From Eledone cirrhosa (Eukaryota), in assembly GCA_964016885.1 (NCBI GenBank), contig OZ024740.1, positions 212,226,001 through 212,290,000 of the forward strand: 64,000 nt of DNA, in the 5' to 3' direction. Every line of letters starts with the position of its first letter. Position 1 is the first letter of the stretch. The notes under the pieces were generated by a model. The model did no database searches and was not told the DNA's origin. It worked only from the letters and a program-made list of their open reading frames with translations. The translations under genes were made by a program, and so were the position numbers. This document shows positions 16,145 to 27,928 of the stretch, one piece after another.

Positions 16145-17827
16145 TTTGGATTTAATGCTCTGAAATAGCGATATATATGTGAAGACAAACATAGAATATT
16201 CGAAAATATTCTGTATGTTTATAATAAACATTTTGAAGACCCAATCGCTATAGAATAGAATACGTCACGTATTACAATTTGAGATTCTCGATAAAAGCAA
16301 GGGAAGTAACCTACGCGTTTCATTCTTATTAGAAATCATCAGGATTACATATCCAATGCTTTTATCGAGAATGACACAGCTAGAGACTTATAGAATACTT
16401 AGCTGTGTACAGGAACTGGTTTGAAAGAGCGGTAGCTGGTCCGGCAGAAAATAGAATTTGGATTTAATGCTCTGAAATAGCGATATATATGTGAAGACAA
16501 ACATAGAATATTCGAAAATATTCTGTATGTTTATAATAAACATTTTGAAGACCCAATCGCTATAGAATAGAATACGTCACGTATTACAATTTGAGATTCT
16601 CGATAAAAGCAAGGGAAGTAACCTACGCGTTTCATTCTTATTAGAAATCATCAGGATTACATATCCAATGCTTTTATCGAGAATGACACATCTAGAGACT
16701 TATAGAATACTTAGCTGTGTACAGGAACTGGTTTGAAAGAGCGGTAGCCGGTCCGGCAGAAATTAGAATTTGGATTTAATGCTCTGAAATAGCGATATAT
16801 ATGTGAAGACAAACATAGAATATTCGAAAATATTCTGTATGTTTATAATAAACATTTTGAAGACCCAATCGCTATAGAATAGAATACGTCTTCACATATA
16901 TATCGCTATTTCAGAGCATTAAATCCAAATTCTAATTTCTGCCGAACCGGCTACCGCTCTTTCAAACCAGTTCCTGTACACAGCTAAGTATTCTATAAGT
17001 CTCTAGCTGTGTCATTCTCGATAAAAGCATTGGATATGTAATCCTGATGATTTCTAATAAGAATGAAACGCGTAGGTTACTTCCCTTGCTTTTATCGAGA
17101 ATCTCAAATTGTAATACGTGACGTATTCTATTCTAGAGCGATTGGGTCTTCAAAATGTTTATTATAAACATACAGAATATTTTCGAATATTCTATGTTTG
17201 TCTTCACATATATATCGCTATTTCAGAGCATTAAATCCAAATTCTAATTTCTGCCGGACCTGCTACCGCTCTTTCAAACCAGTTCCTGTACACAGCTAAG
17301 TATTCTATAAGTCTCTAGCTGTGTCATTCTCGATAAAAGCATTGGATATGTAATCCTGATGATTTCTAATAAGAATGAAACGCGTAGGTTACTTCCCTTG
17401 CTTTTATCGAGAATCTCAAATTGTAATACGTGACGTATTCTATTCTATAGCGATTGGGTCTTCAAAATGTTTATTATAAACATACAGAATATTTTCGAAT
17501 ATTCTATGTTTGTCTTCACATATATATCGCTATTTCAGAGCATTAAATCCAAATTCTAATTTCTGCCGGACCAGCTACCGCTCTTTCAAACCAGTTCCTG
17601 TACACAGCTAAGTATTCTATAAGTCTCTAGCTGTGTCATTCTCGATAAAAGCATTGGATATGTAATCCTGATGATTTCTAATAAGAATGAAACGCGTAGG
17701 TTACTTCCCTTGCTTTTATCGAGAATCTCAAATTGTAATACGTGACGTATTCTATTCTATAGCGATTGGGTCTTCAAAATGTTTATTATAAACATACAGA
17801 ATATTTTCGAATATTCTATGTTTGTCT
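16145..17827. repeat. Array A: 312-bp HHR-containing tandem repeat, head-to-head inverted (about 2.4 units minus, 3 units plus; junction about 16888-16890)
   Basis: CTGATGA cores at 17044, 17356 and 17668 give a period of 312. Minus-strand HHRs at 16306-16348 and 16618-16660. GTC microhomology at the inversion. (TA)n on both sides. Confidence 0.95.
17038..17080 (+). ncRNA. Type I hammerhead, family A (also 17350-17392 and 17662-17704 plus; 16306-16348 and 16618-16660 minus)
   Basis: GTAATC-CTGATGA-tTTCtaataaGAAt-GAAA-CGCG-TA-GGTTAC. Stem III is the palindrome ACGCGT with a GUA triplet. Stem I is extended by the 16-bp helix ATTCTCGATAAAAGCA/TGCTTTTATCGAGAAT. Confidence 0.9.
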
Positions 17828-18940
17828 ATACATATATATATATATAAACAAGTAAAATATAAAATATACATCGATATACATACATATACATATATATATA
17901 TATATATATATATATATACATATATATACATACATATACATACACATATACATAAACACATACATACACATACATATACATACACACACCATATAAATAC
18001 ACATACACATACACACACGCATACATATAGAGACACATACATATACACATATAAATACATAGACATATACACATATATATATAAACATACACACATACAT
18101 ATATATATACATTCACAACACACATATATATATATATATATATATATACACATATCTACACACATATATAAACACACTCATGTATATACACACATACACA
18201 TACATACCCACACATATATATATATATATACATATACACATATATATATATATATATACATATATATATATATATATATATACACACATACATACACACA
18301 TATACACATACACATATACAAAGATATATATACATACACACACACATATAATAAATATATATATATATATATATATATATATATATATATATATATATAT
18401 ATACACACACATATATATACATACATACACACACATACATACTCATACATAGACATACATATATACTCACATACATACACACATACATATACGCATATAT
18501 ACACATACATACACATCCATGTATGCGTATATACATACAAACACCACCACACGCTCACACAACTCAGACATACATAAATAAAGGGATATACATACACATA
18601 TATACATATATAAATAGAGATACATATACACATATAAATATATACACACGTACACACACACACACACATACATACACATACATATACACACGCTCACACA
18701 ACTCAGACATACATAAATAAAGGGATATACATACACATATATACATATATAAATAGAGATACATATACACATATAAATATATACACACGTACACACACAC
18801 ACACACATACATACACATACATACACACATACATATATATACACACATATATATATATATATATATATATATATATATATATATATATATATATATATAT
18901 ATATATATATACATATATATATATATACATATATATATAT

Positions 18941-26430: not shown

Positions 26431-27045
26431 TTATATATATATATATATATATATATATATATATATATATATATATATATATATATATATATATATATAT
26501 GTATATATATATGTGTGTGTGTGTGTGTGTGTGCATGTGTGTGCATGTGTGTGTGTGTATGTATATATGTGTATATATGTATATATATATATATATATGT
26601 ATATGTGTATATGTATATGTATATATATATGTATACGTATGTGTGTGTATATATGTATGTGTATGTATGTATGTGTGTATGTGTAAATATATATATATAT
26701 ATATGTATGTATGTGTATATATATATATATATATGTGTGTATATATATATGTGTGTATGCATATATATATATATGTTTGTGTATGTATATATGTCTATGT
26801 GTATTTGTGTGTATATACATGTATATTCGTGTTTGTATGTATGCTTGTGAGTGTATTTATTTGTGTATATATATATGTGCGTGTGTCTGTATGTATGTGT
26901 ATGTGTGTGTGTGTATCTGTATATATATATATATATATATATATGTGTGTGTGTATATATGTGTATATATTTTTATATATATATATATATATATATATAT
27001 ATATATATATATATATATATATATATATATATATGTATATATGTA

Positions 27046-27928
27046 TATATATATGGATGTAAATATAATGTATTTTGCAATACACTTTATGCTTAATTAA
27101 AAGCATTTTGAAGACCGTAAGCTATTGTTTTAAAGTAGTGACAAATTCACTCACTTCGATCTCAGCAAACAGGAGGAGATAAGCCGACATGACATGTTTC
27201 GCTTTTGTTGAAGCTTATCAAGGCCAACTACCCCGCCCGTCTACTGAGATCAATGATGTTATATTCTTATAGAAATCTAGTAAATAATCAGGAGCTGATT
27301 ATGCAGAGCGGTTGTTGGTCAGGCTAATCAGCTCCTGATTATTTACTAGATTTCTATAAGAATATAACATCATTGATCTCAGTAGACGGGCGGGGTAGTT
27401 GGACTTGATAAGCTTCAACAAAAGCGAAACATGTCATGTCGGCTTATCTCCTCCTGTTTGCTGAGATCGAAGTGAGTGAATTTGTCACTACTTTAAAACA
27501 ATAGCTTACGGTCTTCAAAATGCTTTTAATTAAGCATAAAGTGTATTGCAAAATACATTATATTTACATCCATATATATATTGCTATTTCAGAGCTACAA
27601 TTCTAATTTTTAATTTCTGCCTGACCAACAACCCCTCTGCATAATCAGCTCCTGATTATTTACTAGATATCTATAAGAATATAACATCATTGATCTCAGT
27701 AGACGGGCGGGGTAGTTGGCCTTGATAAGCTTCAACAAAAGCGAAACATGTCATGTCGGCTTATCTCCTCCTGTTTGCTGAGATCGAAGTGAGTGAATTT
27801 GTCACTACTTTAAAACAATAGCTTACGGTCTTCAAAATGCTTTTAATTAAGCATAAAGTGTATTGCAAAATACATTATATTTACATCCATATATATATTG
27901 CTATTTCAGAGCTACAATTCTAATTTTT
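27046..27928. repeat. Array B: 317-bp HHR-containing repeat, head-to-head inverted (about 0.9 unit minus, 1.9 units plus; junction 27324/27325)
   Basis: TTGATAA cores at 27405 and 27722 give a period of 317. Inverse copy at 27182-27225. Flanked by (TA)n. Confidence 0.93.
27718..27761 (+). ncRNA. Type I hammerhead, family B, U3-A8 core variant (also 27401-27444 plus and 27182-27225 minus)
   Basis: GGCC-TTGATAA-GCTT-caacaa-AAGC-GAAA-CAT-gtc-ATG-TC-GGCT with a GUC triplet. Stem I is extended by GATCTCAGTAGAC/GTTTGCTGAGATC. Confidence 0.82.

Follow-up and report, generated by a model that had tools for sequence, protein, structure and literature searches.

We describe a conserved domain of about 140 nt that is shared by two families of non-coding, hammerhead-bearing elements, A and B, in a 64,000-nt stretch of the Eledone cirrhosa genome (assembly GCA_964016885.1, contig OZ024740.1, positions 212,226,001 to 212,290,000 of the forward strand; hereafter the window, with positions counted from its first letter). 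We consider it likely that this region is a folded RNA platform that serves a borrowed Hydra-type Penelope-like protein as docking place and as internal start of reverse transcription. Both sites at which insertions of these elements end lie inside the region, and their spacing from two helices that distant families retain is constant, which supports the reverse transcriptase (RT) binding signal suggested in a preliminary description of this DNA; the second catalytic or ligation motif offered there as an alternative gained no support. The region is real, probably functional and of a known functional kind, with a previously undescribed helix frame.

Families A and B are metazoan retrozymes without long terminal repeats (non-LTR retrozymes), that is, hammerhead-bearing non-coding tandem units in (TA)n with Penelope-type ends. 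The family A insertion (16145..17839) consists of 312-nt units in two back-to-back arms, one on the minus strand (16145-16890) and one on the plus strand (16888-17839), whose 5' ends meet; the family B insertion (27053..27928) has 317-nt units, with a minus arm at 27053-27324 and a plus arm at 27325-27928. One type I hammerhead is found per A unit (17341..17406, plus strand; predicted cut after 17386), and the type I hammerhead of B (27703..27780, plus strand) has the U3-A8 core variant described in the portion of PMC4209133 drawn on here. Hammerhead core and stems are present in every A and B unit, on the strand of the shared motifs. Scores with Rfam HH9 are 20.6 bits for A, whose core was read off the sequence, against a gathering score of 52, and 31.1 bits (E 1e-5) for B, likewise under the gathering score. 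U3-A8 cores occur in families B and E, further core changes in F, and C3-G8 in A, G, C and H. No protein frame of at least 120 amino acids lies inside the A or B units.

A pattern built from the shared motifs gave 17,420 matches genome-wide and none when reversed; A-group units thus number about 17,400. The copies sort into subfamilies A, A', B, E, F and G and an older K, and chimeric junctions are common. Pattern scans gave no match in viral contigs, and their four matches in metagenome contigs were all chance occurrences in bacterial-looking coding DNA and were excluded from later counts. At 16432-17584, the outermost full unit of both A arms has a private A-for-G variant after GACC, and the inner units differ; the variant may record one template copied into both arms. 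Older A-group tails often adjoin (CA)n, (CT)n or C runs rather than (TA)n (for example L283, L284, L294 and L310).

The shared domain spans 17447..17584 in A and 27500..27639 in B, both on the plus strand, and scores 151 and 173 bits, respectively, with model R1, which recovers all A and B copies between window positions 8000 and 40000. In A, helix P1 would pair 17447-54 with 17526-33 and helix P2 17537-41 with 17580-84; GGTC lies at 17457-60, GACC at 17569-72, and hairpins 1, 2 and 3 at 17467-83, 17486-505 and about 17506-23. The corresponding positions in B are 27500-05 with 27583-88 for P1, 27590-95 for the P2 5' strand, 27510-13 for GGTC, 27623-26 for GACC, and 27520-37, 27540-59 and 27560-77 for the hairpins, of which the AU-rich third had escaped the preliminary description. 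The motifs listed in that description (P1, GGTCTTCAAA, hairpins 1 and 2, the AT run, GCTATTTCAGAGC, the GACC block and GCTCT) were all found in place, and GCTCT is indeed intact in the minus B copy at 27311 and broken in the plus B copy at 27632-27639. The similarity of A and B outside the hammerhead also held (blastn, A 17457-17600 with B 27510-27654, 73.1% over 145 nt, E 6e-16). The hammerhead arms had been called unrelated; however, the other 164 nt of A and B align at 55%, with a score of 83 against 43.5 ± 8.8 for shuffles that was reached by 1 of 200, so the hammerhead halves are homologous too. The identities of 73% and 55% were computed for the A-B pair alone.

As first proposed, the domain corresponds to no known RNA family: Rfam has no match over the A domain at E up to 10, a single hit of E 8.8 on a hairpin of the B domain, and none at the gathering score in four loci of B, G, H and C3. 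The whole-window Rfam scan was swamped by microsatellite hits; the focused scans used instead yielded sub-threshold hammerheads alone. Monomers of A and B fold better than 100 of 100 shuffles (z -4.6 and -3.3), and in single-sequence folds the shared region forms the pole opposite the hammerhead. Two other readings were considered. An ATG-started frame of 28 codons in B, E and G could be a coding remnant; it is frameshifted in A, as read by eye, and its changes are the stem changes, and this reading was rejected. A possible splice acceptor at TTTCAG has no conserved donor in A.

In A, site 1 (17518..17527, plus strand) marks the short insertion end at the 3' edge of the hairpin-3 loop and is followed by the AT run, and site 2, the long end, lies at about 17554 within the tail (17528..17558, plus strand); in B, site 1 follows 27572 and site 2 falls at about 27607-11. 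The left end of the A insertion is at site 2 and the right end at site 1, while the minus arm of B ends at site 1 and its plus arm at site 2. The offset between the two ends in A, A' and B is 27 nt when counted after the AT run and 35-36 nt from the loop edge, and site 2 is 12-17 nt downstream of GCTATTTCAGAGC. A first survey of 30 A loci had already placed array ends at two unit positions 27 nt apart, both within the domain. Ends were then mapped in the window and in fetched loci, with duplicates removed by flanking sequence, a procedure that may merge look-alike TA flanks. Across eight families, 193 of 217 distinct 3' ends fall in two intervals that make up 3-11% of a unit, compared with 11 of 205 5' truncation points in the same intervals. 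The share is 33/33 for A (20 at site 1 and 13 at site 2), 30/31 for A' and 16/18 for B, together 79 of 82 sampled ends. Ends are also paired: among 69 two-armed rows, 53 combine site 1 with site 2, a single row uses site 1 for both ends, site 2 is never used for both, and the other 15 include an end outside the two sites; for A, A' and B, 29 of 32 two-armed insertions have one short and one long end. An inverted, 5'-truncated copy with a tail of 30-40 bp at one end, as expected of a non-autonomous Penelope-like insertion, is thereby found in A, A' and B.

Targets are mostly (TA)n, and in A and A' a target-type T replaces the unit's C at 24 of 31 site-1 ends; DNA past site 1 therefore derives from the target. 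In family G, a G interrupts the AT run of the unit; of 22 site-1 ends, 12 turn into TA right at the loop edge, 2 retain the template G, and the other 8 stop earlier or are unclear. An AU run of 8-9 nt after site 1 matches the target in A and B; site 2, as well as families C, C3 and H, have start sites without homology to the cut DNA. A single arm can run through as many as about ten units, past many copies of both sites, and the ends scatter over several bases.

The same helix frame recurs in distant families. Family C lies in the window itself (531-nt units, insertion 28828-32649) and has an equivalent domain at 30732..31090 on the plus strand, with P1 at 30732-39 and 31004-11, P2 at 31015-21 and 31084-90, and a cross-loop helix at 30745-50 and 31069-74. 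Families C3 and H were found in flanks; pattern matches number 17,493 for C/H and 4,496 for C3. In all three, the order of parts is that of the A group: hammerhead, closing rod, P1 5' strand, cross-loop strand, hairpins, site 1, P1 3' strand, short linker, P2 5' strand, tail, site 2, partner strand, P2 3' strand and a further hairpin. The sequence of P1 is rewritten while its pairing is kept across 90-270 nt, from ATAGCG/CGCTAT in the A group to GTATGGCA/TGCCATAC in C, GTACGGCT/AGCCGTAC in C3 (two two-sided changes relative to C) and GTATGAC/GTCATAC in H; P2 occurs as AGAGC/GCTCT, GAGTGAG/CTCACTC and GTGAGT/ACTCAC. When the own-family duplex was compared with shuffled partners, p ranged over the eight families from <0.0005 to 0.027 for P1 and from 0.0005 to 0.05 for P2, values that are optimistic because the windows were picked by eye. 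P1 pairing is mostly group-specific, with one exception, G with H. The cross-loop helix, whose pairing is not group-specific and whose p values are optimistic for the same reason, scored well in H (0.002), G (0.019) and C (0.021) and is weak in A, A', B, E and C3 (0.056 to 0.21). Geometry is constant in A, B, G, C, C3 and H. Site 1 precedes the 3' strand of P1 by 7-10 nt, and 2-4 nt separate P1 from P2. Site 2 falls within the loop that P2 closes; from there it is 11-15 nt to the cross-loop strand and 22-27 nt to the 3' strand of P2. The distance between the two sites, by contrast, varies from 35 to 72 nt. In block alignments of the distant families with the A group, 6 of 12 scores were reached by at most 12 of 1000 shuffles, and four of these six include the hammerhead core. 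The H cross-loop strand aligns as an insertion adjoining GGTC, not on GGTC itself, and four runs aligned to family H gave no new paired changes.

Within the A group, the earlier claim that stems change with pairing retained applies to hairpin 1 (one pair), hairpin 2 (two pairs) and hairpin 3 (one pair). It does not extend to P1 and AGAGC/GCTCT, which lack covariation between A and B and covary in distant families alone. In alignment A2, which comprises 12 real copies, 91.7% of cells pair and four pairs are changed on both sides; the A rows are shifted by one column at P1, and the count is lower for it. Both the share of paired cells and the covariation score exceed those of all 500 shuffles. 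Most one-sided changes lead to G-U on the hammerhead strand. The same paired changes recur in a larger set of 72 distinct B, E, F, G and K copies, obtained from 111 by dropping 39 A-type sequences, and the local hairpins are supported by this handful of events. A swap of two stable tetraloops, UUCG for GCAA, had been read into hairpin 2, but the loop is GCCA or ACCA in G and F, which is not GNRA. The UUCG of A is closed by U-A; the extra-stable UUCG loop closes with C-G. P2 and GGTC/GACC carry no covariation because both are invariant in the A group. The proposed GGTC/GACC pseudoknot is thus unproven, with p values against shuffles of 0.18 in A and a marginal 0.056 in B. A change of the first G of GGTC to T occurs in 23 units genome-wide, as scattered single copies with GACC kept in 12 of 12 inspected, and these variants show neither pairing nor tolerance. 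P1 was chosen by single-sequence folds, and GGTC/GACC and hairpins 1 and 2 by RNAalifold.

The window also contains a candidate for the class of enzyme involved. Family D is represented by a 5'-truncated Hydra-type Penelope-like open reading frame (24805..26430, minus strand) that is open for 541 amino acids. The preliminary description had named a Naiad RT; however, the order of an RT followed by a C-terminal nuclease, the DKT and CxCX5C motifs and a hammerhead at the start of the frame are of Hydra type in this element. PMC8557442 gives the same description for Hydra elements (RT, C-terminal nuclease, DKT and CxCX5C) and ascribes to Naiads an N-terminal GIY-YIG nuclease and no canonical hammerheads. 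Five young, full-length family D copies (L263-L267), 97-98% identical to the window copy, have open frames of 758 amino acids that start just after the hammerhead; Pfam holds no model for Hydra proteins. Family D ends at two sites 72 nt apart and has a hairpin in its tail, and its hammerhead core and stem II match those of A over 27 nt except for a 2-nt indel, the sole A-D match. The mobilising enzyme is likely Hydra-type by class. Family D represents the candidate class, and the partner is assigned by class only, because D is without an A-type domain and no autonomous carrier of that domain was found. In searches for such a carrier, a tail pattern derived from L038 with a non-TA continuation gave no match, and 100 matches of the 13-nt tail core with unusual continuation proved to be A-group ends, deletion variants or singletons. 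L038 (1990-2145) and L191 represent another hammerhead family with a 70-nt tail, whose GCTCT...AGAGC hairpin equals the long-range P2 strands of the A group.

Several observations weigh against a conserved platform. Formal covariation is weak, with four events in few independent lineages. The A2 count of pairs with two-sided changes is not above shuffles (348 of 500), kinship alone can make related sequences beat shuffles without structure, and corrected mutual information in the 72 copies puts nine pairs outside the structure first. Template switching can give local hairpins paired changes without selection. Helix H4 is broken in B and H5 shortened in A, and the single-sequence fold of A swaps hairpin 1 for a longer hairpin 2. 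RNAalifold picks GGTC/GACC over P1 and P2; these may therefore be alternative folds. In run X5, which comes from a different organism, the domain varies no less than the remainder: it makes up 45% of the stretch and contains 8 of the 15 variable sites. None of these eight falls in P1, P2, GGTC/GACC or hairpin 1, and two break hairpin pairs. Homology of C, C3 and H to the A group is probable, not certain, and model R1 does not raise C above the TA background. The intervals for ends and helices were fixed after the data had been seen. In family D, the tail measures 72 nt and an A-type domain is missing; 100 filtered matches, with 50 loci and regions screened for open reading frames, revealed no autonomous element that carries the domain.

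Considering these points, we weighed the folded RNA platform against three other explanations. The conserved sequence could act as DNA, as a unit-internal promoter, as a tail recognised by the GIY-YIG nuclease at resolution, or as both, with the helices being secondary. The promoter of Penelope sits in the pseudo-long terminal repeat according to the relevant part of PMC8557442, the Drosophila virilis nuclease requires the tail in DNA (work cited in PMC11167929), and unpaired stretches are nearly as conserved as stems (0.92-0.93 for TTC.AAATG, the P1-P2 linker and AATTTYTG in the 72-copy set, against 0.95-0.98). Against a DNA signal stand families C, C3 and H, in which these sequences differ but the pairings persist at an unchanged spacing from both end sites, and the bias of one-sided changes towards G-U on the hammerhead strand. 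We regard this explanation as rather unlikely, and a DNA and an RNA role may coexist. Alternatively, the region may simply have diverged less than the rest of two homologous units, or have been exchanged as a block through template switching; its hairpins would then reflect the compactness of circular RNA and palindrome-making RT errors, and the enzyme would start at accessible AT-rich spots. The homology of the remainder of the unit, the non-significant formal covariation, the lack of excess conservation in run X5 and the frequent chimeric junctions would all fit such plain descent. Against it stand the abundance of other AT-rich spots, including a long internal TA run in C units, while insertions end at two sites only, the fixed distances of both end sites from P1 and P2, and the rewriting of the long-range P1 with pairing kept. 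On balance, plain descent appears improbable to us.

The compact multi-helix fold with its possible pseudoknot and invariant unpaired bases could also suggest a second ribozyme or ligation motif, in which sites 1 and 2 are RNA cut sites and the free ends serve as template starts; in the anole element, RNA-seq read ends do coincide with the start sites (PMC11167929). This seems very improbable, given that no Rfam ribozyme matches besides the hammerhead, that arms read through many copies of both sites with ends spread over several bases, and that retrozyme circles are thought, in the section of PMC7229834 concerned, to be closed by a protein ligase.

For the folded RNA platform, we propose the following hypothetical multistep mechanism, in which we infer transcription, folding, binding and priming from the observed positions and pairing of ends and the observed helix spacing: (i) units would be transcribed from the hammerhead strand as multimers or circles; (ii) P1 and P2, 2-4 nt apart, would position sites 1 and 2; (iii) the nuclease would cut both strands of a (TA)n target; (iv) each DNA 3' end would prime one complementary DNA (cDNA) through a 1-3 nt A/T match, helped in A and B by the 8-9 nt AU run; (v) the two cDNAs would be joined at their 5'-truncated ends, giving an inverted two-armed insertion with the tail on one arm. 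The cross-loop helix (GGTC/GACC in A and B) may draw the two sites together, which is the least supported step. A more far-reaching and tentative idea, which we hold to be possible but doubtful, is that the domain represents a structured RNA of a new class. Two adjacent helices, with a kissing helix between their loops, would form a scaffold resembling telomerase RNA and offer both start sites to a dimer of Penelope RT; a single RNA would in this way template the two ends of one DNA break. If true, no template-recognition fold would have been defined earlier for Penelope-like elements or retrozymes, and the scaffold would account for the tail and the inverted insertions.

The surroundings of A and B are rich in mobile DNA. 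Between 8500 and 34900, nested inverted arms lie in TA microsatellites, with Hydra-type ends and minielements A, B and C inserted in one another's TA tracts; the Hydra-type ends comprise family D and two others at 10636-11322 (minus strand) and 36732-37685 (plus strand). Degraded frames of non-LTR retrotransposons, presumably RTE-like, occur at 1169-6600, 41100-42300, 55200-58100 and 59272-62182. At 47758-51202 on the minus strand, broken Rep-helicase frames, which we take to be Helitron-like from their motifs, lie beside two arrays of 48-nt tandem repeats (45866-46486 and 47120-47758) that are inverted relative to each other.

Among known systems, the telomerase RNA template/pseudoknot domain serves a sister RT and likewise has a template loop closed by a long-range helix and a possible pseudoknot. 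The analogy is functional only, since copying here spans whole units and is not iterative, and the helix order differs. The closest counterpart is PAc (Poseidon_Ac) of the green anole, whose protein, a predicted dimer, cuts both strands of AT-rich DNA in vitro. Its reverse transcription begins at two internal positions of an AC-rich stem-loop, and the stretch from one to the other makes up the genomic tail (PMC11167929). As in PAc, two internal start sites, inferred here from genomic ends, flank the tail 3' of the hammerhead, the start lies in a stem-loop (here with the loop ACATTC in B, E and G), the target is AT-rich, and both strands would be primed. In contrast to A and B, PAc is an autonomous Poseidon element with its sites within the first 172 nt of the open reading frame, and the main text of PMC11167929 describes no conserved multi-helix frame or covariation; A and B are non-coding, their likely enzyme is Hydra-type, and an AU run matching the target follows site 1 in A and B (not in C and H).

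With metazoan non-LTR retrozymes, A and B share non-coding tandem units of about 300 nt with one type I hammerhead each, and mobilisation by Penelope-like elements has been proposed for them, as stated in parts of PMC7229834 and bioRxiv 10.64898/2026.07.22.740005. How priming occurs and which signal the RT recognises is left open there, and no conserved domain outside the hammerhead is mentioned. The Hydra clade, as characterised in the corresponding portion of PMC8557442, has the same (TA)n targets, canonical hammerheads, inverted 5'-truncated copy and one-end tail; unlike its members, A and B encode no protein. In a literature search by title and start of abstract, covering few subscription papers, no description of a conserved fold around the start sites of retrozymes or Hydra elements was found. 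For the function there is a published precedent, the initiation at two internal sites of a Penelope-like stem-loop (PMC11167929); the conserved helix frame around the sites is new here. Penelope-like RTs are the sister group of telomerase, and their template choice and inverted one-tailed insertions are still an open question, addressed by one in vitro study. The 140-nt non-coding domain, with natural variants that rewrite helices and keep spacing, offers a minimal substrate and ready compensatory pairs. It names the cis signal that would let retrozymes borrow an enzyme, a signal long inferred and so far undefined for such RNAs. For RNA-templated DNA writing, too, a portable signal of internal starts could be of relevance.

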